Origin: a virus
DNA length: 64,000 nucleotides
Direction: 5' to 3' (one strand)
UHGV virus genome: UHGV-1366603
In this document: positions 9,633 through 39,110 of the stretch, piece by piece
Position numbering within the stretch: the stretch's first letter is position 1
How the letters are laid out: each line of letters opens with the position of its first letter
Translations under genes and position numbers: made by a program
The notes under the pieces: generated by a model
What the model was told of the DNA's origin: nothing
Database searches by the model: none
Seen by the model: the letters and a program-made list of their open reading frames with translations, nothing else

Positions 9633-10904
9633 ATGGCAAATTTCGCAAAAACTCGCGCCGCTCGTGAATCAATGGAAGCGGCCGATGAAGTAATCGACGG
9701 TATCAGCAACGTTGAACCGGCAGAAGAGAACCTGGACGTCCAGCTTGCGGACGTTGCATCTATCGACGGTCAGCTCGAACAGCTGGAAACCGACGGTGAA
9801 ACCCTGGCTGCCGATACCGAGCGTACTGAAGACGCTATCGAACAGGCGGAAGAAGCCGTTGCTAACGGTGAAGAAATGCCGGAAGAAGCGGTTGCCCTGC
9901 ATGAAGTGGCACAGGAATCCATCGCACGTCGTTGGAACCTGGAGCGTACTAAACTGGCTCGCGAATCCTATCGCCGTGGCCGTGGCATGACTGCTGCTGC
10001 GCAGGAAGGCTGGAAAGAAACCCTGAAAGGTCTTTACGAGCGTTTCATTCAGTTCTGTAAAGAAGTAATTGCGAAGATCAAAGACCTGAAACTGAAATAT
10101 TTCAACGTCGGTAAGACCGCACAGAAACGTGCGAAGAAATATCAGGAAATGATCCGCAAGCTGGGCAAACAAGATAAAGACAACATTTCTGGCGGCTTTA
10201 TCACCAAACTGTCCATCGAAGGTAAATTCGATGCTGCTGGCTCTATTGCCATTGCTAAAGAAGTGACCGCAGGTAAAGCTAAAGGTGCTATCAGTGCACT
10301 GGAAAAACAAGCTGGTGAAGCTGTGACTGCTGTTACCAAAGGTGACGATGACGCATTCAAAGCGATGCGTGGTGATCAGCCGGTTGAACTGTTTGGTAAA
10401 GCAGCGTCTAAACTGCATTCTCTGCCGAACTTTGAAAACGGCGATGCGTCTAAACTGCTGGCTCTGCCGGGCAACGCTTACGTTCAGGCTGGTACTAAAG
10501 AACTGGCTGGCGGCCACAAGTTCACCGCAATTGCGTTCATGAGCACCGGTGACGCTTCTGACGATAAAGAAGTGGCTACTCCGTCTGTTTCCGAAATGGC
10601 TGGCGCGGCATCTGCTCTGGAAGCGATCGGTAAAGGCTTCGAAGCTGTACTGAAAGATTTCCGTGCTTACGATTCTGAAATCGTGAAACTGCAACAGGCT
10701 GCTGAAAAAGCGTCCAACGCGCTGAACAACGAAAAAGACGAAAGTAAGTGGGAAGGACTGCGTAATGCACGTCAGGCCGCTGATCAGTCTGTGAAGAACT
10801 ACCAGACCCTGAACCGTGCCGTTAGCTATGTTGCTAACACCGTTATTAGCGGTCTGAACGGTTACCTGGGTGCTGGTATCGGCGCGTACAAAAAGTCTAA
10901 ATAA
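9633..10904 (+). CDS. abundant acidic-N-terminus protein, paralog A (423 aa); candidate head internal/scaffold-like virion protein
   Basis: Starts MANFAKTRAARESMEA, same as downstream paralog; strongly host-optimised codons (ctg/cgt/ggt/aac); long antisense shadow ORF. Confidence 0.85.
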   Translation: MANFAKTRAARESMEAADEVIDGISNVEPAEENLDVQLADVASIDGQLEQLETDGETLAADTERTEDAIEQAEEAVANGEEMPEEAVALHEVAQESIARRWNLERTKLARESYRRGRGMTAAAQEGWKETLKGLYERFIQFCKEVIAKIKDLKLKYFNVGKTAQKRAKKYQEMIRKLGKQDKDNISGGFITKLSIEGKFDAAGSIAIAKEVTAGKAKGAISALEKQAGEAVTAVTKGDDDAFKAMRGDQPVELFGKAASKLHSLPNFENGDASKLLALPGNAYVQAGTKELAGGHKFTAIAFMSTGDASDDKEVATPSVSEMAGAASALEAIGKGFEAVLKDFRAYDSEIVKLQQAAEKASNALNNEKDESKWEGLRNARQAADQSVKNYQTLNRAVSYVANTVISGLNGYLGAGIGAYKKSK

Positions 10905-10943: not shown

Positions 10944-10962
10944 GGGGAACGACGTGTTCCCC
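10944..10962 (+). other. intergenic hairpin GGGGAAC-GACGTG-TTCCCC between paralogs (weak terminator/processing site)
   Basis: Stem-loop seen in sequence; no strong T-run. Confidence 0.3.
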
Positions 10963-10980
10963 TTAGAGGAAAAGCTTAAA

Positions 10981-12243
10981 ATGGCAAATTTCGCAAAAAC
11001 TCGCGCCGCTCGTGAATCGATGGAAGCTACTGCTACTGTAGTTCCAGACGGCATCGAACTGCCAGCAGAATCTGTTGAAGGTACTCTGGCCGATATCGAA
11101 CATGATACCAAACCGATCGAAGCCCTGGACGCTGACGCTGAACTGCTGGCCGAAGACGGCGACGAAACTGATGCTCAACTGGATGTCCTGGATGAAGCTC
11201 AGGCCGCTGCCGACGGTGAAGGTGCTGGTGAAGACGGCGAAGAGCCGATGGACGCTGAAGAAGATATGCCGGACGACGCAGCGACTGCGCTGGACGTTGC
11301 TCAGGAATCTATCCGTTCTCGTTGGAACTTCGAACACCGTTCTTCCGTTGCACACGAATCCTACGGTTCTCGTAACCGTCGCCAGGTTGCTCGTGAATCC
11401 CTGTGGGAAGACATTAAAGCATTCCTGAAACGTATCTGGGAATGGCTGAAAGAACAAGGCCGTAAGATCAAAGATCGTTGGCTGAAATTCTCCAACCAGG
11501 GTAAATCCATCCAGGCTCGTTCTAAGAAATACGACGATGCTATTCGTAAACTGGGCAAACAGAAGAAAGATGAAATCTCTGGTGGCTTCATCAAGTCTCT
11601 GTCTATCGACGGTAAATTCGTTGGCGACGATCTGTCGCGCCTGAAGAATATCCTGAACCACGTCTCCACCTACTACAGTGGTAACGTTCAGAGCTTCCTG
11701 AACAACGGTACGGATATGGTTGGTAACGTCGTTAAAGGCGATGGTGCTAAAGTTGAGAAACTGAAAGCAGACTTCGCTGCTCTGGCTAAAGAAGACGTTA
11801 GCAAGTTCAAACTTGGTAACATGGCTCTGAAGATGGAGTACGACGAAGAAGGCGGATTTAGCTCCAGCTATGTGGAAGCTGAAAACCGTGCTGAAACCAA
11901 CGTGAAAACTCCGTCTGTTAGCGAACTGGCTAAGACCAATGCCTTCTTCAACGAAGTGGGTAAACAGATCGAGAAGAACGTTCTGGAATATCGTAAGACT
12001 GAACAGGCTCGCGAGAAATTCAGCCAGCAGATTGAGAAGCTGCTGAAAGAAATCGACAGCGTGAAGATCGACGAAAAACCGCAACTGACCGAATCTGTAC
12101 GTACCGCACGTCGTTACATCAACAGCATTAACCAGGCAGTGTCTCTGGGCGAGAAAGTTATTTCCTCTACTCAGAAACATCTGGCTGGCGGTCTGAACGG
12201 CTATATCTCCGCAGGTATCGCTGCTTACGAAAAATCTAAATAA
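10981..12243 (+). CDS. abundant acidic-N-terminus protein, paralog B (420 aa)
   Basis: Start set at MANFAKTRAARESMEA (track ORF begins upstream at 10954); shared N- and C-terminal motifs with paralog A (…GLNGY…AGI.AY.KSK). Confidence 0.85.
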   Translation: MANFAKTRAARESMEATATVVPDGIELPAESVEGTLADIEHDTKPIEALDADAELLAEDGDETDAQLDVLDEAQAAADGEGAGEDGEEPMDAEEDMPDDAATALDVAQESIRSRWNFEHRSSVAHESYGSRNRRQVARESLWEDIKAFLKRIWEWLKEQGRKIKDRWLKFSNQGKSIQARSKKYDDAIRKLGKQKKDEISGGFIKSLSIDGKFVGDDLSRLKNILNHVSTYYSGNVQSFLNNGTDMVGNVVKGDGAKVEKLKADFAALAKEDVSKFKLGNMALKMEYDEEGGFSSSYVEAENRAETNVKTPSVSELAKTNAFFNEVGKQIEKNVLEYRKTEQAREKFSQQIEKLLKEIDSVKIDEKPQLTESVRTARRYINSINQAVSLGEKVISSTQKHLAGGLNGYISAGIAAYEKSK

Positions 12244-22361: not shown

Positions 22362-23924
22362 TCAAAAGAGTTCGTCTCCCATACCGCCTGTAAAGACGTT
22401 AATCGACGATGCAGTTACTGTTTCTTCTTTATCGCAATCCCAAGGCAGAATGCCAACTTCACGGAAAGGTATTACTGTATAATGGTAAGCTTCTTTAGTA
22501 TCGATAATTGTACGGTGTTTACCACGTTGTACTTCTAAGTAACTATGTCCATTGACAACACGTTTGTTAAAATACATCTCACCGTCAGCTTCGTTATCCA
22601 AGCTGGAGCAGTTATCGTAAAGACCGCGACCTGGTAAGTTCTTGCAGAAACTTGCTGGGTCTAACGCTTTTAATTTTTTGCCTTCTGGTGAGATTTGGTG
22701 TGGTGCTAACAAGAAACCACGGTTACGTACTACCTGGATGTTTCGAGCGATACGATAAATTTCTTTAATGTCGCTACCGGCAATCCCGTTACCGTGACCT
22801 GCTTTACTGATAGTCCCGAAATAGTCTCCGCGAATCCCAGCTACATGATAACCTCGACGCTTTAAGTCCAGTATTAAGTCGTTTAAGTAGTGTATTTTAA
22901 AATCTGAGTTTGTGTGTTTCTGAAAGATGTATTCCCAACCGTTAGCCCGCATTTTACTACAGAGGTAGTCCGACATTTTTGTGTTGTGCAAAGCTTTCTC
23001 TTCGTCGGTAGCGTTTTCAGAAGCAACCATAACCGGTGCTTCACCTTCAAAATGACCGTAGAGCGCTTGGTACGCATACGCCAAGTTAACGTCCAGTTCG
23101 TTCTCTAAACTTAAATCGAGAATAACCGGCTGCAAATCCCCTTTAACGTTTTCCATTACTTTTTCAGGTGTATTGAATACCGGAATACTGATAGACAATA
23201 ACAGACTAAAAAGTGATTTACAGTTAAAAGGCAGTGCAGGCATTAGCCAAAGTTCTTCGGTAATCCCTTTGTTACAACCCAGCATCTGGTTAATGGCTTT
23301 CCATCCGGTACGTAAACCGTTACCCGCCGCTTTCTTACTGATGGAGTCGAACACGTGTACGAACGGTGCACGGTTATCCGTAATAAGTTCGCCTACAAGT
23401 GAGGGAATCTTATTATGAGAGCGTTCACTGAACGTAGAGAGACTATCTCTGAGGTCGTTGAGCGCCGTTTGTAAATCAACGCGCGTTTCGGTTCCGTTCA
23501 GTGCGCCTAACGTACGACCTAATTTTTGTTTCAGTTGTACGCCTTGAATAGCTTGACGTAATTGGAAGTAGTATTGTGCTACTTGACGGTTAAGATGCTC
23601 GATGCGTGCTTCTGGTTCTTCTGGAATATCATCTTCCAGGAATTTGGTAATCGTATCGTATAGAGGACGTATTTGCGTAGTGGCCAATTTCAAACGTTTC
23701 ATGACGTTTGTGTGGTCGTAAGGCATACCGCCGTCTATGATGGATGTGATGATATCCTTGATTTCGACGAGGGCGGCACGTTCGTCACCTTCCTCTACGT
23801 AATCAGGAAGCTTAGCCTCTAACAGCACTTTTCTTATGACCTCATGATCCTTCTCAGGGTCGGTCAACAGACTTTCAGTGTATAGTGTGGCTAATGCGGT
23901 TATCAACATCATTTTGTTATTCAT
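22362..23924 (-). CDS. hypothetical protein (520 aa)
   Basis: Long minus-strand ORF; AAGGA RBS overlapping start of divergent gene 23938. Confidence 0.8.
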   Translation of the reverse strand: MNNKMMLITALATLYTESLLTDPEKDHEVIRKVLLEAKLPDYVEEGDERAALVEIKDIITSIIDGGMPYDHTNVMKRLKLATTQIRPLYDTITKFLEDDIPEEPEARIEHLNRQVAQYYFQLRQAIQGVQLKQKLGRTLGALNGTETRVDLQTALNDLRDSLSTFSERSHNKIPSLVGELITDNRAPFVHVFDSISKKAAGNGLRTGWKAINQMLGCNKGITEELWLMPALPFNCKSLFSLLLSISIPVFNTPEKVMENVKGDLQPVILDLSLENELDVNLAYAYQALYGHFEGEAPVMVASENATDEEKALHNTKMSDYLCSKMRANGWEYIFQKHTNSDFKIHYLNDLILDLKRRGYHVAGIRGDYFGTISKAGHGNGIAGSDIKEIYRIARNIQVVRNRGFLLAPHQISPEGKKLKALDPASFCKNLPGRGLYDNCSSLDNEADGEMYFNKRVVNGHSYLEVQRGKHRTIIDTKEAYHYTVIPFREVGILPWDCDKEETVTASSINVFTGGMGDELF

Positions 23925-24474: not shown

Positions 24475-26760
24475 ATGAAAGATACCCGAATCTCTAATTT
24501 AGAGAAACTCGTAGAAGCCGGTACTAGTCTGGCCCAAAACGTCATCGGCAACAACACCGCCAGCGAAATGTGGAATACGATTGTTGCAGGCGAGTCCGTA
24601 CGCAGCAACGCAAAAGTGTTTGGCGCTCTGCGTGACGAAGCATCACAGCACTATGCCAACGCTTTTGGTGGCAAGAAAATGTCTCATGCTGCGACTGTCG
24701 CCTCCGCAATGATTCTGGGCGCAGCTAACCACGGTAAAGACCTGCAAGAACGTGTTGCCCAGGAATACGCTAAGCCGGAATTCCACACCAAGTATAACCT
24801 GGATATTGGTATCCCTGGTGCGCAAGGTGGTGACTGGGGTCGTGAGCGCATGGTTGTTGCTCAGGAATACTACAGCAACAAAGACTACGACAAAAACCTG
24901 GGCCTGACCTGGACCCTGAACGTACGTGCTCTGGAAACTCAGTCCAAGTTTGCTGAAACACTGTTCCCGACCATTACCGTCGACACCAACGATGTTGGTA
25001 TTACCGTACGTACTAAAGTGACTACCGTTTCTCGCGGTATCATGAACGCGCTGCTGAGCAAAGACGTCGTTGAAGATCATCGTCGTCCGCTGCACAACGC
25101 ACTGACTGACCACACCGTTCTCCAGGACGAAGCGATCAACATCGTTCCTTACGTAATGGAAACCGGTGAAAACCAGGAATACTTCGTAAGCGAAGAACTG
25201 GTTCCGAACGAAACCGTTCGCCTGGGTCGTGTACCTCCGTATCCGACTAACTACCTGAGCTTTGCAAACGACACGCTGAACCTGTTCCAGCTGTCTGCGC
25301 ATCCGGGTATCGTTCAGGAAGGTTACGAAGAAACTGATGAAATCGCACCGGGTTGTGCTCTGGGCAGCCTGCTGATTTCTGTACGTAAACCGGCCGAAGA
25401 AGCGAAAGCGGGTAAATTCATCAAACTGCACGTTCGTGACATGCAGTTCGCAACCTTCCAGCGTCCTGCTGAAGGTGACGGCCGTGAACTGGTTCTGCAA
25501 TTCCGTCGTACCGCGTTCTCTCTGAATGCGAAAACCACTGACTGGAAAGGCGACGCTATTCCGGCTCTGCAAGCACTGGGCCAGAACTCCTACACCCTGC
25601 GCTACGTTATCACCATCACCATGTCCCTGTTCACCAGCGGCCAGTTCGGTGGTAAAGTAGACATTTCCGGCCACAAACTGGAAATCGAAGGTCTGTACGA
25701 TGCAACTGGTAACAAAGTTGATACCAAGTCTGGTACCGGTAAAGTTATCCTGGATGGCCTGAAACTTGAACTGATGGGCTGGCGCTTCGATGGTACTCGT
25801 ACCAACGAAAACCGTCGTACCCAGGGTCTTCTGCTTGACCCAATTTGGGAACAGGAAAACTACAAACTGCAATACGGTTCTCCGATTCTGACCAAGTCTC
25901 CGGTTGGTGTTGAATACGACGACACTGAACGTCTGGACGACCTGATCTCTGCGGTGAACATCCGTAACGAACAGCTGGCTATTACTCAGACGCTGTCTTA
26001 CACCGAAGCAGTACGTAACGCAGCCGCTGCGATGATCACTCCGTGGGACAAACCGGCTATCCGTGGTCTGGGCCGTCACTGGGTTGCTCCGTGGTTCAAA
26101 GAGTCTGACTACAAAGTCGATGAAGTTGTTCAGTCTCTGGATACCAAAGAAGCGCTGATCAACGCTCGTCAGGGTCTGTTGCAGCGTATCGGTAGCCAGG
26201 TAACTCAGGCTATCCAGGATTCTCGTTTCATTCCTGCACTGCGCCTGCTGACCGCTGATCCGGACATTCTGCCGAAAGTTATTATCGCAACTGACGAACC
26301 GACTGCATCTATGCTGCTGCTGGTTCAGGGCGACCAACGTCTGCTGGGCGACCGTTATGAATACGAAGTCGTTACCACCAACGATGACCGCTGGCGCATC
26401 TACAACGCAGCTGACGATTCCTGGACTCGTCGTCTGCAATGGTTCCTGAAAGTTCCGACTGCGGACGATGGTTCCTACTGCGTACTGAACTGGGGTAACC
26501 ACTTCTGGTCTCCGATCATGGTTACCAACATCAACATCCAGCGTAACGGTTCTACTTCTAAAGAACTGGCTGTACAGCCGCGTAACGCGCATATCTGCCA
26601 CTGCCCGATCACTGGTCTGATTTGGGTTAAAGGCATCACCAAACTGGTTGAAGAAAAACTGGCTTACAACGTTTCTGTAGAACAGAACGGCCAGAAACAA
26701 ACCGACGGTGGTGTAGCAGGTAATGTTGCTGGCGACGGTAAAGACAAAGCTGGTAAATAA
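24475..26760 (+). CDS. major virion structural protein (761 aa); candidate major capsid protein (alternatively tail sheath)
   Basis: Extreme host-optimised codon usage, strong terminator after it, 685-aa antisense shadow ORF; size matches phiKZ-type major capsid proteins (from memory). Confidence 0.85.
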   Translation: MKDTRISNLEKLVEAGTSLAQNVIGNNTASEMWNTIVAGESVRSNAKVFGALRDEASQHYANAFGGKKMSHAATVASAMILGAANHGKDLQERVAQEYAKPEFHTKYNLDIGIPGAQGGDWGRERMVVAQEYYSNKDYDKNLGLTWTLNVRALETQSKFAETLFPTITVDTNDVGITVRTKVTTVSRGIMNALLSKDVVEDHRRPLHNALTDHTVLQDEAINIVPYVMETGENQEYFVSEELVPNETVRLGRVPPYPTNYLSFANDTLNLFQLSAHPGIVQEGYEETDEIAPGCALGSLLISVRKPAEEAKAGKFIKLHVRDMQFATFQRPAEGDGRELVLQFRRTAFSLNAKTTDWKGDAIPALQALGQNSYTLRYVITITMSLFTSGQFGGKVDISGHKLEIEGLYDATGNKVDTKSGTGKVILDGLKLELMGWRFDGTRTNENRRTQGLLLDPIWEQENYKLQYGSPILTKSPVGVEYDDTERLDDLISAVNIRNEQLAITQTLSYTEAVRNAAAAMITPWDKPAIRGLGRHWVAPWFKESDYKVDEVVQSLDTKEALINARQGLLQRIGSQVTQAIQDSRFIPALRLLTADPDILPKVIIATDEPTASMLLLVQGDQRLLGDRYEYEVVTTNDDRWRIYNAADDSWTRRLQWFLKVPTADDGSYCVLNWGNHFWSPIMVTNINIQRNGSTSKELAVQPRNAHICHCPITGLIWVKGITKLVEEKLAYNVSVEQNGQKQTDGGVAGNVAGDGKDKAGK

Positions 26761-27964: not shown

Positions 27965-29740
27965 GTGTTTAAAGATGCAATCAGAAAGCTTAAAGAGGAT
28001 GGCAAAATAGTACCCTTTAACCGAGCGATTGCGGAAGGTGTCGGTTATACACAGGCCAAAGACGGTATACACGAGCGTGTTCAGATTATCTTGAAACGTG
28101 AGCTGGATTATCATCCTGTTGATAATCCGCGTGTTCCTGAAGGGCTGGCTGTATTAGGCGTACGGTTAATGTCACCGTTTGAAACGTTCATCTATAAGCT
28201 GTCTCGTTCTGAGAGCAGCAGAATGGATAGACGTCGTGGCGTGATGTCCATTGCGAATACCGATGCGTATATGGTCATGTCAACATTCCGTATTCCAGGA
28301 GATTCTCGACCGATCTCAAGACCGATTAACTTACCCTTTATCCGTCGTGGCGGTTTAATGAACTATTACGGTACGACGTATCACGTTGCACCGGTTATTC
28401 ACCAGCCAGGTATCTGTCGCGAACACGGTGGGGTATTTGTTAACTTTGACTTTAAACGTAAAGCCTCGTTGAAATTCTGTAAGCAACCTGTCCGTGTGTT
28501 AGTCAACGGTAAAAAAGAGGAGCTATTCTTACCAGGCACCAAAAACCTGTTCAAAGCGAAGAACGCAACACATCCTGATACTGACGAGAAACCGTTAATG
28601 TATTGGTTGTTCGGACGTTACGGATTTAAAGAAGCGATTAAACGCTATACTGGTGTTGATGTAGAAATTTATCCGTCGTTTAAGATCCCAGAACTCGATC
28701 TCAACGAGAAAGTTGTAATCAGTTCCGGTGAATCGAAATATAACCGTTCGATAATGTACGCGGTTGTCGTACCCGCAGAAGCATTGCCGAACGTGGATAA
28801 AGTTGGTTGGGATCAAAACGAGCATTTGTTGCTGGCCGCAATTGCTGCGTTCTTCAAAGCCGCTCACTACTATTGCAGTAAACAATCTATTAAGAACGGT
28901 AACGTCACGCCGCTCCCGCCGCTGTTTACCGCAATTAATGAGTTAGCGATGGAAGACGATATTGCTAACCTGAACTCTGCTCCGATTTGGCGTGAGATTC
29001 TGGGAAGAAGTATCGTAGGACTAAAACCTTCCGATATTGAGTTAGCACACAGTATGGCGAAACACTATACTGAATGCGATCGCTACGTTAACTCAACGTT
29101 CCGTGCAGAACTGAAGATGACCGATCCTGACATTCCAGACGACATGGATATGTTTGATTTCTTCTGGTATGCAACGAAACTGATGGTACGTACCCGGTTG
29201 ACCAAACAGGGTGACATTCCGTCGATGTACGGAAAACGTTTAACCGTGACTGACTACTTACTGTTAGGTGACCGTGGGTTTACACCAACGGTAGCGGCTA
29301 TTCGTTTCCATCTGGGACAAACGGAGAATCGTTCGCCAGAATCCTGCGCGAATATGATTCGTAGCGCACTCAATAAAGAAATTGTCACGAGTCTGGTGTT
29401 GCGTAATATCACCGGTAACGGTGGTGTAAGCTATTTCAACGCATCAACAGAGTCCATGGTACTAGGAGTATCCACACACGCAATCAGTCAAACTGAAACG
29501 GAATCTAAACGTAACAGCAAAGGCGGTAAAACGGTTAACCTTAACGACCGTACGAAACATGCTTCTGCATCGCACCTAGAATGCGGTAACGTTTATTACA
29601 TTCCGAAGTCGTCCCCATTCAAATGGGGTGTCCTTAACCCGTACATGAAAACTAACCGTCAGTTAGTGATGGTCCGTAATCCAAAACTTGACGAGTTAAT
29701 CCAAGCAACCGAAGAAGACATTGCGAAGATTGGCCGTTAA
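27965..29740 (+). CDS. hypothetical protein (591 aa)
   Basis: ORF with AAGGAG RBS and apparent GTG start. Confidence 0.7.
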   Translation: MFKDAIRKLKEDGKIVPFNRAIAEGVGYTQAKDGIHERVQIILKRELDYHPVDNPRVPEGLAVLGVRLMSPFETFIYKLSRSESSRMDRRRGVMSIANTDAYMVMSTFRIPGDSRPISRPINLPFIRRGGLMNYYGTTYHVAPVIHQPGICREHGGVFVNFDFKRKASLKFCKQPVRVLVNGKKEELFLPGTKNLFKAKNATHPDTDEKPLMYWLFGRYGFKEAIKRYTGVDVEIYPSFKIPELDLNEKVVISSGESKYNRSIMYAVVVPAEALPNVDKVGWDQNEHLLLAAIAAFFKAAHYYCSKQSIKNGNVTPLPPLFTAINELAMEDDIANLNSAPIWREILGRSIVGLKPSDIELAHSMAKHYTECDRYVNSTFRAELKMTDPDIPDDMDMFDFFWYATKLMVRTRLTKQGDIPSMYGKRLTVTDYLLLGDRGFTPTVAAIRFHLGQTENRSPESCANMIRSALNKEIVTSLVLRNITGNGGVSYFNASTESMVLGVSTHAISQTETESKRNSKGGKTVNLNDRTKHASASHLECGNVYYIPKSSPFKWGVLNPYMKTNRQLVMVRNPKLDELIQATEEDIAKIGR

Positions 29741-31771: not shown

Positions 31772-32071
31772 ATGATTAAATATGTTGTTATTAATGTAAA
31801 CTACGAACGTAGTCCACGTTTTCGCTTCGAATTACCTGAAACCAATGCAACCATGGAGTTTAATCGTTACCTGTTAGAACATTCAAACACCAAAGTCAAT
31901 CACGGTAGATACTGGCTTATCTACTATAATGCCCGTAATGAGTTACTGAAAGCCGTTAAGAAATCAGGTCAGTCAGAACTGTTAGCGAAACTGATGGCGT
32001 TTGATAACGATCCTTTAGCGATAGGAATTATGTTAGACCTTGCTATCAATAAAGACGAGATAGCGTGGTGA
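31772..32071 (+). CDS. hypothetical protein (99 aa)
   Basis: ORF with GAGGA RBS. Confidence 0.7.
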   Translation: MIKYVVINVNYERSPRFRFELPETNATMEFNRYLLEHSNTKVNHGRYWLIYYNARNELLKAVKKSGQSELLAKLMAFDNDPLAIGIMLDLAINKDEIAW

Positions 32072-32077
32072 AAAAAA

Positions 32078-32133
32078 AAGAAAGCTACTCCGACCCCAGA
32101 AGGGTCGGAGTAAGCTCGAATTATTTTTTTTTT
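32078..32133. terminator. bidirectional intrinsic terminator
   Basis: A9 run, CTCCGACCC-CAGAA-GGGTCGGAG hairpin, T11 run, between convergent genes. Confidence 0.85.
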
Positions 32134-32138
32134 GCTAT

Positions 32139-34856
32139 TTAGAGAGTTTCATCGGTGTTTTCGTCTGTACCGGTATCCGTCTCGTCCGTGCCTTCAGTTG
32201 AAACGTCTTCTTCCGTTGTCGTATCGGTTTCTGTCGTTTCATCATCGGTCATGTCCAAGTCTTCATCACCGCCCAGATCGTCACCACCTAAGTCCTCATC
32301 GCCTCCTAAGCCACCGTCATCTTCAGTGCCGCCACCAAAGTCGCTACCACCGCCGAAGTTATTGGCGTCTTCAGGATTCAGATCGGCTGCTTTTGCTAAC
32401 GTCTGAACTTTACCTGTCGCACGTTTTGCTAACTGAATCAGCGTCTTCGATGCCGCTGCAATTTCATCAGAAATCATCTTGACGTTTTCACCACGTTTAT
32501 CTTCATCGTAGATCAAATCAAACAGATCGGTTTCGATGCCCTGATTACGTAGCCAGTTGCGCGCGTAGAAGGTCTTAACCATCGTCTTGAGGTCATCAGG
32601 TGACATTTCAATACCTTCGTTCTGAAGCATATTAGCAATGTCATCCGTGACCACCAGATCTGCAAGTTTCTCGATAAATTCATAGCGTTTATCGAAGAGA
32701 TCAGCTTGAGATGCTGTTGCAGAAGTATCGGGCGGCGGCAAGGTGACCTTCATACCGTTGATAAACTTCGCCATATACTCTGACGTTTGTTTTGTCATCT
32801 CTTCGCTAGTTACATTCGGATTCTGCTCACGGATATACTCAACGATAATACGGATGAGTTCTGCTTGCAGTTTCGGTGAAGCTTGCAGACTGTTTGTAAC
32901 GTAGCGCGTAAGCGGGGTTGAGAGAATTTCCTGTTTCTTCACAATCTGTTGAGTAACCAACAGCGATTTAGAATAAATCTGAGAAGCAAACTCCAGGTTC
33001 TCCGGGGTAAGTACAAGGTCAGGATCAACACACGCGATGTGACATGTACGGCGTAACAGGTTCTCGTCGATTTGTTGATCAGGAACTTTATACTCCGGCG
33101 TGGTATCAGACACAGACACTTTGTGGCTGGCGTAGTAATCGTTACCCGTTACGTTAAAGGCAATCCCCGCATTAGCCCCCATTGACCAGGCGTCGTTGAT
33201 ATCGCCCCACATCGGCAGACGTCGATTGTAGGAGTTAAGGATATCTGATTTAACTTGGTCAACGGTTTTCTGACCGTTTGCATCATCTGGTGACAGCTCA
33301 ATGTCATACTGCATGTGACGTGCCGAGTTCAGTACAGATGAGTTCATCGTTGCGAACAGCAGCGCCATCCTGACAGTAGAGATAATAAAGGAGCGTTCAG
33401 TAATAGAAACCCCGATACCGTCCTCGTTAAAGTCCGTTGCAAAATAGCATAGGTTATTAACCGGAATGTAAACCACCTGAGTATGACGTTTTGCGAGATG
33501 ACGCGCCAACAGAATACGACCGAATGTTTCGGTAATATTCATGCTGATTTCTGCGCCACCTAGTGCCTGACTTAATGCGCGAGCAAATTCGTTTTCAGCG
33601 ATTTCACCACAACGTGCACTTAAACGGTTGGCGATTTCCGGGGTAATACGAGAAGTGTTCCCTAAGCCCAGATTAGAACGGTTAATGATGCTGTCCGTCA
33701 TCCCGTCGTTATTCAGGTAGTTCATAAAGTTCGCATCGCCGTACAGCGAGGAGCGAGCATTGATGAAGTTACCCATGTCATCTACGATGGTCAGATAACC
33801 AATAGGGTTACGAACGTCATCGCCAATTACCAGTGGCAGCGTTGACTCTGCGGGCAGTAAACGTTCGATGTATTCGATTTTGTTATTCTCATCCATTGAG
33901 ATAATAGGAATATCACCGTACGTTTGTGTTTTCGGTGTTGACTTATACGCCTCGTTTAAATCGCCCAAGTTAATGAACCCTTTTTCAGCAGCGTCACGCT
34001 GACGGTCATCGAAAGATTGGTTAGGGTCGAACGGACTGCCACCGTTTGGTGTAGACGGCTTTTCATATGCGGCTTGCTCTAATTGCCCGTACAATCCCGT
34101 ACGTGCGTTCTCATGCGCGATACGACGATACAAATCCGGCAGCATGGTAATGCGTGGGTTATCGGTAATCGTGATTTCCATCTGGAATTTATCCGAGAAC
34201 ATCGAATCATGCTTACCGAAATCGATTTTCAACGTTTGAGGACCAGTAACGGCTCCGTGTAAACGGTTGAGAATTGATTCTACACCAACTCGCTGCCCTT
34301 CTTTCGGCGCATTAATAGGCCCGAGAATACCAAGCTGTTGTTCGAAGAACGCCGTTTGAGAACGACGAACAGATTCAGTAGCGACCTTTGTATTCAGGCC
34401 GAATAATTGGTCGAAGCCGGTATCCGAGATTATCATCACTGGACTTGCGCCTTTGGTTTTTAACGCATCGTAAATCCACTGATATAATTTCTTAGGTAGC
34501 TGACGAATGTTATCGTGATAATCACGGGTCGGTGTCAGTAGCGCGTTACGCAGATCAATGGGGATGTCCGCGATGTTGTCGTAAATCAACGTCGTGTTGA
34601 TTAAGTCTTTTGTTGATAGCAGGCTCGAAGTTGCAATAGTAACGATTGTTTCGAGTTCAGGTAACGCATCAAAGATACGTTCCGCATTTTTGATAGTACG
34701 AATACGTGAACTCGCAATTGCCGTGAGTTCTTGACGTGTTGGCGTAGAACCACCCTCGCTACGCGTACCGCGTTGTTGCTGAGGTGCTGGGCCCGTAGTT
34801 TTACGAAGAATTGCAGCTACGGCGGGGTCGCCCGTTAATTTACTAATATCGTCCAT
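32139..34856 (-). CDS. large protein (905 aa) with Gly/Asp/Glu/Thr-rich acidic C-terminal tail; candidate portal or other head protein
   Basis: Long minus ORF; C-terminus GGGSDFGGGTEDDGGLGGDEDLGGDDLGGDEDL…TDETDTGTDENTDETL; GGAG RBS. Confidence 0.8.
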   Translation of the reverse strand: MDDISKLTGDPAVAAILRKTTGPAPQQQRGTRSEGGSTPTRQELTAIASSRIRTIKNAERIFDALPELETIVTIATSSLLSTKDLINTTLIYDNIADIPIDLRNALLTPTRDYHDNIRQLPKKLYQWIYDALKTKGASPVMIISDTGFDQLFGLNTKVATESVRRSQTAFFEQQLGILGPINAPKEGQRVGVESILNRLHGAVTGPQTLKIDFGKHDSMFSDKFQMEITITDNPRITMLPDLYRRIAHENARTGLYGQLEQAAYEKPSTPNGGSPFDPNQSFDDRQRDAAEKGFINLGDLNEAYKSTPKTQTYGDIPIISMDENNKIEYIERLLPAESTLPLVIGDDVRNPIGYLTIVDDMGNFINARSSLYGDANFMNYLNNDGMTDSIINRSNLGLGNTSRITPEIANRLSARCGEIAENEFARALSQALGGAEISMNITETFGRILLARHLAKRHTQVVYIPVNNLCYFATDFNEDGIGVSITERSFIISTVRMALLFATMNSSVLNSARHMQYDIELSPDDANGQKTVDQVKSDILNSYNRRLPMWGDINDAWSMGANAGIAFNVTGNDYYASHKVSVSDTTPEYKVPDQQIDENLLRRTCHIACVDPDLVLTPENLEFASQIYSKSLLVTQQIVKKQEILSTPLTRYVTNSLQASPKLQAELIRIIVEYIREQNPNVTSEEMTKQTSEYMAKFINGMKVTLPPPDTSATASQADLFDKRYEFIEKLADLVVTDDIANMLQNEGIEMSPDDLKTMVKTFYARNWLRNQGIETDLFDLIYDEDKRGENVKMISDEIAAASKTLIQLAKRATGKVQTLAKAADLNPEDANNFGGGSDFGGGTEDDGGLGGDEDLGGDDLGGDEDLDMTDDETTETDTTTEEDVSTEGTDETDTGTDENTDETL

Positions 34857-34867
34857 TGGGGTCTCCG

Positions 34868-37051
34868 ATGCAGAGATTTAACATATTTCGTGAACAGAAC
34901 ATCGCGTTGGCGAAATCACTGATTATTAAATCAGAATCAATCGCACAACAGATGAATCTGGCAATAACCGAGAACGGCGGTTTCGTTTCCGATAACCGAA
35001 GTACGTGGCGATACTACCTGCATTTAGCAGGACAACGTCACGAATGGGATAAGCCCATTTACATAACGTCGCTCGACACGCAAGAGCAGATAGAATTAAC
35101 GACAGCCAACCTGTCCCGTCATAAAAAGACCTCAAACGTATTTCGTTCGAACGGCGAGTACATTGAGGAGCTGATCAGAACGTATCCTGACTACGCGATT
35201 TATATCCGAGGTGTGTTTAATCCGGTGGATATAAACTACGCCATCCGTGTGGCCGACTGCTCTATCCTCTATTACGACAGTTCATTAGTGGAGTCGCAAG
35301 AGACGTCGCTGATGTCGAGATTGGAAGACAGAATAAGGGCAGCTCATGTTCGCTATATGTCAGAAGGGTGGAAAGTTCACAACGATGCGTTCGTGTTAGC
35401 GTTCTACTGTATTCTGTATCCGCAGCTACCCGGCATTATTGGTTACATCCGTTCTTCTTTACAGCATACCACGGAAACGCATTCGTTTTACGTGACAGAG
35501 TTCTTAGCATCACACCAAGAACTTCACGAGTTTATGCCTTATCTGACCCAGAAACAGAAATTCATTCTGTATCGGAATATTCGTTACTGGGAGCGTAACT
35601 CAGGGAAAGAGGAGATTTTCGACTGGCAGATTGATGCGCTACTGACAGGTTGGGGGATGCCTGCGGTTGGGTATAATGTTGCGCAACAGATACACGAACC
35701 GAAGGATGATGACGATTCCACGTTAACACCGTTACCGATTGGTTATCAGCAATCGCTTAACTATACGGAAAAGGATTCTGGTCGAGACCTTGACATTGTA
35801 ACGACGACGGACATTATCCAGAAGGAAGTCGCGTTAGCGTACAATAACCCGGCGTACGAACCGGAGTATCAGGAAGACTTAGATACCCGTTTAAGTTTAA
35901 CGCAATACCCTAACCTGAAAACCAAACTCATTGAAGTTACAGCAGTCGACCCAGAGGCGATTGAGCGCTTCGAGTATCTGCATAACCTCTTTAACGAATG
36001 GGTACATCTCGTCGCGAAAGGGAAATACAACATTTACCACGAGATTCTTAACCCAACAAACGGGGATACCTTAAAGCTTAGCTCAAAAGAGTTATTGGCG
36101 CTGTTCTTGTACGCGGCGTATAAAGGGTATTCTGACGTTGCGTTAGAAGAGATTCCTGTGTTCAACGTATTCGGGGTGTTAATCAAACGCTGGGTTCCAT
36201 TCGACGAAATGGAACAACATTTAATCCCGAGCTGGGAAAACCGTTTCGATGCGTTGATTAACTATTATACCGATACGCACACAGAAGTCGTCGGAACGAT
36301 TCTCAGTGCTGACGAACTCTACGACACGGTTAATGAAATCATTACCCAGAAACGTCGTCGTTGGCGTTATAGCCAAAACCGTCGGAAGATTCCTGACCGC
36401 GCTGCGGGCTTGATGCTGTTTAACTACCATTATCGTGATTATCGTTGCGATTTAAAACTGAACTACCGTAACTACGATGAGTTCTTTAAAACGTTTGGGT
36501 TAGATTATACGTTGGTTTCTGCGGAGACGTGGCAAGACATTGCTATTGACGCGTTTAACACCGCAACTAACCTCGAAACCCGCGCAACGATTTCACAGTC
36601 TGAGATTCAGCGTGCGATGGTACGACTGATGACGAAGCTGTCATCCTACACCGTACATTTTGCTGCACGAATGGGGTCAGATTCTTACGACGTTATGGAC
36701 CCGCTCTGTCCTATCTTAGGGGATATCCCTATGAGTGGGGAGGGGTCGGTTACCATTATTGAACCCCTCTTAGGCGTACAGCAAGTTACGCGTCACCAGT
36801 ATATGTCCACCGACACTGTGTTACCGGCAGCGCCTGTTATTAAAGAACTGTCGATGCCGCAGCACATCAAACTCAGGATGAACATTTACATGGGCATCCG
36901 AGTGAAAGTAACACAGCAGGTTGTGGTGGATATTAACGAGCCGACTACCGGGGTTGTTAAAGTGAAATCTTCGCTTGACGATTGGACGTTAAACGAACAG
37001 GTGAAAATTAACGATCTGGACGGCTTCACGCTTGACCAGCTACCTAAGTGA
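34868..37051 (+). CDS. hypothetical large protein (727 aa)
   Basis: Start set at ATG 34868 (track uses TTG 34856); diverges 11 bp from 905-aa gene start. Confidence 0.8.
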   Translation: MQRFNIFREQNIALAKSLIIKSESIAQQMNLAITENGGFVSDNRSTWRYYLHLAGQRHEWDKPIYITSLDTQEQIELTTANLSRHKKTSNVFRSNGEYIEELIRTYPDYAIYIRGVFNPVDINYAIRVADCSILYYDSSLVESQETSLMSRLEDRIRAAHVRYMSEGWKVHNDAFVLAFYCILYPQLPGIIGYIRSSLQHTTETHSFYVTEFLASHQELHEFMPYLTQKQKFILYRNIRYWERNSGKEEIFDWQIDALLTGWGMPAVGYNVAQQIHEPKDDDDSTLTPLPIGYQQSLNYTEKDSGRDLDIVTTTDIIQKEVALAYNNPAYEPEYQEDLDTRLSLTQYPNLKTKLIEVTAVDPEAIERFEYLHNLFNEWVHLVAKGKYNIYHEILNPTNGDTLKLSSKELLALFLYAAYKGYSDVALEEIPVFNVFGVLIKRWVPFDEMEQHLIPSWENRFDALINYYTDTHTEVVGTILSADELYDTVNEIITQKRRRWRYSQNRRKIPDRAAGLMLFNYHYRDYRCDLKLNYRNYDEFFKTFGLDYTLVSAETWQDIAIDAFNTATNLETRATISQSEIQRAMVRLMTKLSSYTVHFAARMGSDSYDVMDPLCPILGDIPMSGEGSVTIIEPLLGVQQVTRHQYMSTDTVLPAAPVIKELSMPQHIKLRMNIYMGIRVKVTQQVVVDINEPTTGVVKVKSSLDDWTLNEQVKINDLDGFTLDQLPK

Positions 37052-37586: not shown

Positions 37587-38466
37587 TGTCAAAGTTTACG
37601 ACGGTAAACTCTCGACGGTAACACTTAATGCGATGCGTCTGGCTACCGCATTAATTACCGGTGCCGATGTGCAATACCCACAGAAGTCCACACTGAATGA
37701 GTTTTATAAGCTCATGCAAACCCCAGTGCCGGACGGTAAAGCACGTCCCCATTTGCAGTACATGGCGATTGGTAACCGTGGCCACATGGTCGACACATCA
37801 GACGTTGTTGCTGATGTTGTTCCTGTAGCTAAAGAACCTATCGCGTCCGGGATGTTTTCACGCGTTCCGTTTGTCCTGCGTACTAAAGACAACGATTTGT
37901 CTGATGAACAGCGTAAGAACTACGCTTTCCGTACTCTGGAAACCATCAACAAACGTGAGTATTGGGCGTACTACTTAAAACGCATTGACATGCGTGCAGT
38001 AAAAACTACCGACTACGACATTAAGCGTGAGAACGGTGTTGAAACTGTAGAAGACTTTGTCTATACGGATACTGAACTGAACCCGGTACCGAAAGTGTTA
38101 CCGGACTACGATTACGACGATGACGGTACCGTTGCAATTCCTGACGGCCGTTATGTGGAATCAGGCGCAGACCTGGTTATTCCGTGGACGGACTTTGACG
38201 TTCAGGAGTACATGAACGTGACCAGCATTATGCGCGGTAGCCCTCGTAGTTCGATTATCTCTGAACTGGCACTGTGCTCTGGTTTAGACCAAGTAACGTC
38301 TGGTGACTCTGCCACAGGTTCGAAGTTCAGCTACACTGAAGCTATCGGTGTACAAGCCCTGTATTACATTTCGATGTTTACTAACCTGGCGCAGACGAAC
38401 GATAAACTGTCACTGACAATCCGTATCGGTCAACCTGCACCGTTCTTCTTAGGGACAGCGAATTAA
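37579..38466 (+). CDS. hypothetical protein (295 aa)
   Basis: GGAGA RBS, 8-nt overlap with upstream gene. Confidence 0.8.
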   Translation: MSNVKVYDGKLSTVTLNAMRLATALITGADVQYPQKSTLNEFYKLMQTPVPDGKARPHLQYMAIGNRGHMVDTSDVVADVVPVAKEPIASGMFSRVPFVLRTKDNDLSDEQRKNYAFRTLETINKREYWAYYLKRIDMRAVKTTDYDIKRENGVETVEDFVYTDTELNPVPKVLPDYDYDDDGTVAIPDGRYVESGADLVIPWTDFDVQEYMNVTSIMRGSPRSSIISELALCSGLDQVTSGDSATGSKFSYTEAIGVQALYYISMFTNLAQTNDKLSLTIRIGQPAPFFLGTAN

Positions 38467-39110
38467 TGTTGATTCCTGAGCCGAGACTTCCCGATAAAAT
38501 GGTCAGGATCGCGGCGATAGACCCCGGTACGAGCCATCTCGGGATGGCGGTGCTGGATTGGGAATATGGCAGCGACCAAGCCGAAGTGGTGTGGGCTGAT
38601 ACCATGCACGTATTAGACCCAACACATCCAAGTGCGTTTGCAGAGTGTGTCGGTAAACGCGACGATCGCTTAGTAAAACTCGAAGCGTGCTACCGTGAGT
38701 TTCTTCGGATTGCGCGTCCGACGTTTGTTGCAACAGAAACGCCGTTTATGCGGCGGGCAAAACTCTCCGCGTATGAGTCTGGCGTAGAGTTACAGCTGAT
38801 GTTAAGACGGGCGTTATGGGACGTGTTTCCAGAGAAAGTCTTACACGGGTTCAATCCGATTATTGTAAAATCATTCGTTGGTGTGGAAGCGAAAGGAACG
38901 GACAAAACAGATATGTTTCGTGCCGTAACGAAGTTGTATCGCGACCACGCGTTGTTTGACATTACAACGTTGGATGAGCACAGTATCGATGCCGTGGCGG
39001 TGGGGAATATCTTTGTCAGGGTAAACCTGTTAAACTTGAATAGTCTCCTACCGCCAAAACAAAAGTCTGCTAAGACAGCAAAACGGCGGAGAAGACGTCG
39101 GAGGAAATAG
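38466..39110 (+). CDS. putative RuvC-like Holliday-junction resolvase/endonuclease with poly-Arg C-terminal tail
   Basis: N-terminal VRIAAIDPGTSHLGMAVLD (RuvC IDPG motif), internal ETPF and DEHSIDAVAVG acidic motifs, C-terminal KRRRRRRRK. Confidence 0.55.
   Translation: MLIPEPRLPDKMVRIAAIDPGTSHLGMAVLDWEYGSDQAEVVWADTMHVLDPTHPSAFAECVGKRDDRLVKLEACYREFLRIARPTFVATETPFMRRAKLSAYESGVELQLMLRRALWDVFPEKVLHGFNPIIVKSFVGVEAKGTDKTDMFRAVTKLYRDHALFDITTLDEHSIDAVAVGNIFVRVNLLNLNSLLPPKQKSAKTAKRRRRRRRK

Follow-up and report, generated by a model that had tools for sequence, protein, structure and literature searches.

A predicted jumbo-phage portal protein with conserved protease sites and a polyanionic C-terminal tail in virus genome UHGV-1366603

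The 64,000-nucleotide (nt) stretch of virus genome UHGV-1366603 analysed here (the window) carries on its minus strand, at positions 32139..34856, an open reading frame (ORF) for a protein of 905 amino acids (aa) that ends in an acidic tail. A preliminary description of the locus had proposed a large jumbo-phage portal, with ejection proteins as another class bearing such tails, and the locus raises the questions of what the protein is and what its tail may be for. Portal proteins form a 12-copy ring at one special vertex of the capsid; the ring nucleates the prohead, docks the terminase motor, provides the channel for DNA entry and exit, and attaches the neck adaptor.

Identity of the 905-residue protein

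On the homology evidence, there is very little doubt that ORF 32139..34856 encodes the portal protein. The translation matched PHROG 3004 ('virion structural protein, head and packaging') over residues 2–902 with an E-value of 0, and phmmer searches against PDB sequences returned phiKZ gp129 (9xpe_M, PHIKZ129, 12 chains, E 1e-42), the Goslar 'Portal Protein gp36' (11ed_J, E 1e-28), and a 12-chain 'virion structural protein' (36za_o8, E 3e-23). In BLASTP, residues 1–834 were 73% identical to gp81 of Salmonella phage SPN3US, and tblastn against phage genomes produced 256 records, every one a jumbo phage, with the Erwinia phages Asesino, Stratton and phiEaH2 (75%) and SPN3US (72.6%) as the nearest relatives. 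Of the homologs, phiKZ gp129 was identified as the dodecameric portal in the phiKZ cryo-electron microscopy (cryo-EM) atlas, and has conserved regions in common with T4 gp20, the differences being mainly in the wing and barrel (PMC13250141). Goslar gp36 is a portal with wing, stem, clip and crown, reconstructed in a C12 map (bioRxiv 10.64898/2026.04.21.720040), and SPN3US gp81, which is called the portal, was detected in the virion by mass spectrometry and served as the stoichiometric standard at 12 copies (PMC5694885, PMC10052503). The earlier proposal of a large jumbo-phage portal was thereby borne out.

Because no significant domain was obtained from Pfam, identification was achieved via PHROGs, PDB sequences and fold comparison. 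The comparison with portal structures, which had been suggested as a check in the preliminary description, was run and recovered the portal fold for the window protein, the portals of T4, SPP1, HK97 and P22 being related to it at the fold level only. The large root-mean-square deviation from the phiKZ portal is explained by the predicted model being a monomer.

Some points weigh against the assignment. No portal family was found in the Pfam scan of the protein even at E-values up to 1, when only two unrelated sub-threshold matches were returned, and the protein falls in none of the Phage_portal/HK97-type, T4 gp20-type, SPP1 gp6-type and P22-type families of that database. The predicted structure was of moderate quality, with a mean predicted local distance difference test score (pLDDT) of 62 and a predicted template modelling score (pTM) of 0.53 for the monomer model. 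Moreover, virion presence, cleavage and structure of the portal of the window phage rest on homologs and prediction.

It is scarcely credible that the protein is not a portal but another large head component, i.e. an ejection or inner-body protein, with an acidic tail by chance. Most orthologs in public records are annotated just as 'virion structural protein' or 'hypothetical protein', and acidic stretches are carried by internal head proteins of the window as well, but the protein is homologous along its full length to two portals whose 12-mers were solved in situ, and this and the 73% identity to SPN3US gp81 oppose such a reading; the ejection-protein alternative named earlier thus found no support. 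Nothing about the gene itself is unusual, as it is orthologous to a characterised portal and comes from an undescribed phage, and its product can now be named portal protein with predicted maturation sites. Confidence is high in the description as a whole, namely that of a portal whose protease sites are conserved and whose acidic tail is disordered and lies inside the capsid. The precursor, computed from the translation, has a mass of 100.1 kDa and an isoelectric point (pI) of 4.6, and the gene is divided as follows.

32139..34856, minus strand: portal protein gene, 905 aa plus stop, with ATG start and TAA stop
34110..34856, minus strand: N-terminal region, aa 1–249 (27.7 kDa, pI 7.9), aligning with the 254-aa SPN3US gp81 propeptide
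34374..34382, minus strand: A-T-E motif, aa 159–161, predicted internal propeptide cleavage site, equivalent to SPN3US ATE-161
34110..34118, minus strand: A-H-E motif, aa 247–249, predicted maturation cleavage site, aligning with SPN3US AQE-254
32382..34109, minus strand: predicted mature portal body, aa 250–825 (wing, stem, clip and crown helices)
32142..32381, minus strand: polyanionic, predicted disordered C-terminal tail, aa 826–905 (8.2 kDa), delimited by composition, shuffles, low pLDDT and homologs

Predicted proteolytic maturation

The SPN3US prohead protease gp245 cuts after Glu in the motif A-x-E, and in gp81 the first 254 residues are removed (AQE-254) with an extra cut at E-161, by which the protein is shortened from 101 to 72.3 kDa (PMC5694885, PMC10052503); a semi-tryptic peptide was detected for ATE-161 (PMC5694885). 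When the window protein was aligned to gp81, ATE-161 was identical and AHE-249 was located opposite AQE-254. In an alignment of 46 portal homologs (42–91% identity), A247 and E249 were invariant in 46/46 sequences and E161 was at least 90% conserved, being invariant also in a four-way alignment with the phiKZ and Goslar portals. ATE-161 was placed within a low-pLDDT loop (aa 156–162) of the predicted model, and a low-confidence linker (aa 251–282) followed directly after AHE-249; the segments at both A-x-E sites are presumably exposed. By analogy with SPN3US gp81, the phage prohead protease would cleave the 100-kDa precursor behind the Glu of ATE-161 and of AHE-249, which would leave a mature chain of aa 250–905 with a calculated mass of 72.4 kDa and with its C-terminus kept.

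Counted with related sequences taken as independent, whereby the statistics are overstated, A-x-E motifs were in excess in the N-terminal region (108 observed versus 61.6 expected), essentially through the two conserved sites, and depleted in the mature body (91 observed versus 137.7 expected). The weak under-representation in the tail (18 observed, 25.9 ± 4.5 expected) is a hint only. Such a pattern is what is expected for a chain that survives in a protease-filled prohead.

Several observations speak against a simple loss of the N-terminal region on maturation. The AHE-249 site was absent from the aligned phiKZ and Goslar portals, residues 5–519 of Goslar gp36 have been built into the wing of the mature portal (bioRxiv 10.64898/2026.04.21.720040), and SPN3US virions still give many 'propeptide' peptides (PMC5694885, PMC10052503). 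Since the Goslar wing includes this region and SPN3US virions keep propeptide peptides, the N-terminal piece possibly stays in the particle. By comparison with these phages, aa 1–249 of the window portal, in which the helices at aa 41–150 were modelled confidently, may be nicked yet still bound as part of the wing. Portal processing may thus be specific to the SPN3US-like clade, or the cleaved piece may stay bound.

The major head protein of the window (24475..26760) has AQE at aa 129–131, which matches the 130-residue propeptide of SPN3US gp75. As judged from the motifs, this suggests that the window phage has the A-x-E protease system known from SPN3US.

Composition, conservation and possible function of the acidic tail

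Residues 826–905 include 31 D/E, 16 G and 15 T with no K/R, giving a net charge of −31. The tail is made of two halves, a Gly/Asp-rich one at ca. aa 835–867, with the sequence GGGSDFGGGTEDDGGLGGDEDLGGDDLGGDEDL, followed by a Thr/Glu/Asp-rich stretch from aa 868 to aa 905. Shannon entropy was 2.3–2.8 bits in the tail versus 3.2–4.0 bits in the rest of the protein, and the ORF and the low-complexity acidic Gly/Asp tail were accordingly as first described. The most acidic 80-aa segment of the protein had a net charge of −32, when shuffles of the same protein (n=2000) reached 14.7 ± 2.0 negative charges with a maximum of 25, which places the tail about 8 standard deviations beyond the shuffles; among the 61 ORFs of the 64-kb window that reach 150 aa or more, none has a more acidic 80-aa segment. 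Residues 824–905 of the predicted model had pLDDT values of 25–32 and no secondary structure, and the tail is predicted to be intrinsically disordered.

The preliminary description had moreover reported degenerate GGxDxD-type repeats and Thr/Glu/Asp runs. The composition is as stated, but true repeats were rejected: Tandem Repeats Finder detected no DNA repeat in 32100–32500 at a minimum score of 30, the spacing of GG was irregular, and there were zero strict RTX nonapeptides. The 'repeats' are compositional bias.

All of the close homologs (46/46) carry a tail of 77–108 aa, with 23–52 D/E and 0–3 K/R. The tail of a 93%-identical relative was 92.5% identical to that of the window protein, whereas in relatives with 74–78% body identity the tail was only 30–42% identical and had many indels, the chance identity for the tail composition being 15.5%. 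Mean pairwise identity was 28% in the tail and 54% in the body. A profile search of 1.84 billion representative proteins resulted in 1257 family clusters at 50% identity, from which 141 listed full-length representatives, each less than 50% identical to the others, were surveyed for the tail. A net charge of −10 or below in the last 60 aa was found in 134/141 of these distant representatives (mean 22.7 D/E and 2.1 K/R); the profile included the tail columns and could slightly favour acid-tailed matches. The most acidic stretch was at the C-terminus in 129/141, and the few exceptions had extra C-terminal sequence after the acidic stretch. An acidic, K/R-poor C-terminal tail is also present in the phiKZ and Goslar portals. 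The general remark that acidic disordered tails are found on portals therefore holds across the phiKZ/SPN3US portal family.

By a criterion of our own, not a published one, an acidic tail after the crown is proposed as a family trait. As composition and length are kept while the sequence diverges, it is the charge and length of the tail that are under selection, and not its sequence. Beyond routine annotation, the result is thus a family-wide polyanionic tail of ca. 80 residues, nearly free of K/R and present in nearly all sampled members, which escapes both tryptic mass spectrometry and the Goslar cryo-EM model and is not discussed in the papers found.

In Goslar, the crown (aa 778–923) tops the ring, and the protein was modelled to residue 923 of 969 (bioRxiv 10.64898/2026.04.21.720040); the unmodelled last 46 residues are its acidic tail. 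Going by the Goslar structure, the tail of the window portal would extend from the crown into the capsid interior, and 12 subunits with a charge of −31 each would surround the inner channel mouth with some 370 negative charges. An effect of so many fixed charges is to be expected on packaging, on headful sensing, or on the ordered release of the large cargo of ejection proteins in such phages.

Any specific mechanism is put forward tentatively, at less than even confidence. The preferred one, to which this applies in full, is a brush of electrostatic and entropic nature, which the tails would form where the channel opens into the capsid. The brush would push packaged DNA off the crown and hold the channel mouth clear, and would also feed into the DNA-pressure signal on which headful sensing by portals relies; the T4 portal makes its conformational (headful) switch when DNA presses on the crown and wing (PMC12929629).

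Next in order of preference, though rather unlikely, is that the tail works in assembly, as a flexible polyanionic handle to which internal head proteins, ejection proteins or a scaffold bind by their basic segments, and which thereby nucleates the internal protein mass on the portal or positions proteins to exit first. SPN3US-type heads hold over 40 MDa of ejection proteins, which the portal is presumed to help anchor, via its N-terminal propeptide in the authors' speculation (PMC5694885). The window encodes two internal head paralogs of PHROG 2497, the mature part of one having a net charge of +12 at aa 155–214, and a composition kept without sequence fits fuzzy electrostatic binding. On the other hand, no strongly basic partner stood out among the window ORFs, the top basic matches being spurious overlapping or antisense ORFs and the +12 stretch the one genuine candidate, and the very acidic N-terminal regions of the internal head proteins would repel the tail before cleavage. 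Furthermore, the tail seems to outlast maturation, as no C-terminal processing has been reported for SPN3US gp81, and an assembly-only role would not need such persistence.

A bolder proposal makes the tail a functional organ of the Chimalliviridae-type portal, in which twelve DNA-like polyanions could fill or plug the channel of the empty prohead until entering DNA displaces them, set the headful signal, or tether basic ejection proteins to leave first. Charge and length are kept without sequence across more than 130 clusters less than 50% identical, and the Goslar portal channel is unusually wide, about 60–74 Å (bioRxiv 10.64898/2026.04.21.720040), yet we consider this proposal improbable.

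Without K/R the tail is invisible to tryptic mass spectrometry, so its retention in virions, those of SPN3US included, is presumed. Literature searches on acidic C-terminal tails of portals gave nothing on the feature, the matches concerning e.g. T4 gp14 and the P7-1 tail tube, and as no paper found addresses the tail, the brush and recruitment mechanisms are hypotheses.

It is very unlikely that the tail is a divalent-cation module, i.e. either a beta-roll of the RTX type (GGxGxD) or a generic sink for Ca2+/Mg2+ buffering the counter-ions of packaged DNA near the portal. Binding of divalent cations is a general property of poly-Asp/Glu segments, 29% of the residues in the pooled tails are Asp, and there is a superficial likeness to the RTX consensus with one loose GGxGxD match (GGLGGD). 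An RTX domain was nevertheless rejected, as regex and periodicity tests were negative: strict RTX nonapeptides numbered 0–1 in each of the 46 homologs, and the irregular GG spacing had no 9-residue period in addition to the missing DNA tandem repeat. Neither HemolysinCabind nor any other Pfam match rose above noise at E-values up to 1, no beta structure was predicted at the pLDDT of 25–32, and many tails of the family are rich in Glu/Thr/Ser with few Gly.

Functionless low-complexity drift, e.g. by replication slippage and tolerated in a disordered segment, would account for the poor conservation (28% versus 54%) and the many indels of the tail, but has hardly any standing, since no slippage-type DNA repeat is present, tail identity exceeds the 15.5% chance level, and neutral change would not bar Lys/Arg so consistently nor keep the length (77–108 aa), near-zero K/R and strong charge in 46/46 close and 134/141 distant members. 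An amber-mutant genetic system is available in SPN3US.

Gene neighbourhood, source phage and comparison with known portals

The order of the head module matches SPN3US gp75–gp82, with the major head protein gene followed by four plus-strand genes, the portal gene on the minus strand, and a divergent PHROG 3222 gene (727–731 aa), which adjoins the portal gene and is the counterpart of the gene beside gp81 in SPN3US ('virion structural protein 9'). As in SPN3US, genes for replication and transcription are scattered among the head genes instead of being grouped in a module of their own. The boundary elements of the portal gene and the other genes referred to are listed below.

34863..34866, minus strand: Shine-Dalgarno sequence GGAG, 6 nt 5′ of the ATG at 34856, by direct reading of the sequence
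32085..32113, minus strand: G+C-rich hairpin of 13 pairs resembling an intrinsic terminator, flanked 5′ by an A-run and 3′ by a T-run, from terminator scan and sequence
24475..26760, plus strand: major head protein (PHROG 3231, 761 aa), 5.4 kb from the portal gene
22362..23924, minus strand: DnaB-like helicase (PHROG 3213)
27965..29740, plus strand: 'polymerase' (PHROG 2943)
38466..39110, plus strand: RuvC-like resolvase (PHROG 159)
9633..10904, plus strand: internal head protein paralog (PHROG 2497), net charge −26 at aa 12–91
10954..12243, plus strand: internal head protein paralog (PHROG 2497), net charge −30 at aa 29–108

The hairpin begins 26 nt past the portal stop codon and probably forms, at 32113–32085, a shared end for the portal gene and the convergent plus-strand ORF 31772..32071. 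It lies in the gap (32071..32138) between these convergent genes and resembles a bidirectional intrinsic terminator, having the A-run on one side and the T-run on the other. At the opposite end (34854..34870), the portal ATG (34856, minus strand) and the start of the divergent PHROG 3222 gene, which is an ATG at 34868 on the plus strand according to public contigs, are separated by 11 nt; the other listed start of the latter, a TTG at 34856, would share 1 nt with the portal start. With the starts 11 nt apart, the promoters and 5′ leaders of each gene must fall inside the coding sequence of the other. No convincing sigma-70-type promoter was found (3 matches versus 5.6 expected). Two plus-strand ORFs antisense to the tail DNA, 32132..32482 (116 aa) and 32155..32406 (83 aa), were rejected as genes by inspection. 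They translate to low-complexity strings rich in Ser, Pro, His and Arg and are almost certainly artefacts, since they are GAx, GGx and ACx codons read backwards.

The portal tail alone exceeds the N-terminal stretches of the two PHROG 2497 proteins in acidity. This pair probably corresponds to the abundant SPN3US ejection proteins gp53 and gp54, which lose N-terminal propeptides of 125–137 aa to the prohead protease. In SPN3US-like phages, proteins of the prohead stage may commonly have acidic disordered segments.

The window DNA was about 73% identical to its nearest described relatives, the Erwinia phages phiEaH2, Stratton and Asesino, and it therefore derives from an undescribed phage of a different species or genus within the SPN3US/Asesino group. 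By its sequence, the source is an undescribed SPN3US/Asesino-like jumbo phage of the phiKZ-related, nucleus-forming Chimalliviridae group, and the host is probably an enterobacterium. We know of no ChmB outside Pseudomonas phages. In related nucleus-forming phages, the portal is also found at the nuclear shell, where its binding to ChmB serves the docking of capsids (PMC10643120).

The exact 905-aa protein was present on six contigs from public sequencing runs (e.g. ERR636350, SRR8820147), four of which fall in the 0.2–1 Mb class, and a partial protein 97% identical to the portal has been deposited under Escherichia coli. The window phage is thus already present in public raw data while missing from the annotated phage collection. 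In the Salmonella phages SPFM1, 6, 7, 8, 9, 12 and 20, 'hypothetical proteins' of 512–828 aa gave high bit scores at 2–12% BLASTP coverage against the portal, and one SPFM protein matched the portal profile in 31 separate stretches. These records look like portal genes ridden with frameshifts from sequencing or assembly errors.

Among the known portals, SPN3US gp81 (Seoulvirus) is like the window portal in length (913 versus 905 aa), with 73% identity over aa 1–834, and the masses of precursor and mature chain match (101/72.3 kDa versus the predicted 100.1/72.4 kDa). Gene order and both A-x-E motifs, in register, are shared, as is an acidic, K/R-free tail of similar length, although the tail sequence is largely different (30–42% identity with indels for relatives in that identity range) and position P2 of the maturation site is His in the window portal and Gln in gp81.

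The phiKZ gp129 (9XPE) is homologous over most of its length but only about 22% identical, and it too has a Gly/Asp/Glu-rich end, with 633 of 896 residues modelled. It has an alignment gap where the window portal has AHE-249; the protease specificity of phiKZ is looser, S/A/G-x-E (PMC5694885). Goslar gp36 (11ED) follows the same domain plan, i.e. a large wing including the N-terminal region, stem, clip and C-terminal crown, and has an acidic Thr/Glu/Asp tail. It is likewise about 22% identical, but its 969 aa make it longer, an insertion precedes the crown, there is no A-x-E opposite aa 247–249, and its N-terminal region is seen from residue 5 in the virion structure, unlike in the 'propeptide removed' model of SPN3US. 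T4 gp20 (525 aa), to which there is no detectable sequence-family link, escapes proteolytic processing (PMC5694885), and the window portal is nearly twice as large. Compared with gp20 and the general portal fold, the N-terminal extension of about 250 aa and the polyanionic tail of 80 aa are additions of the jumbo family.

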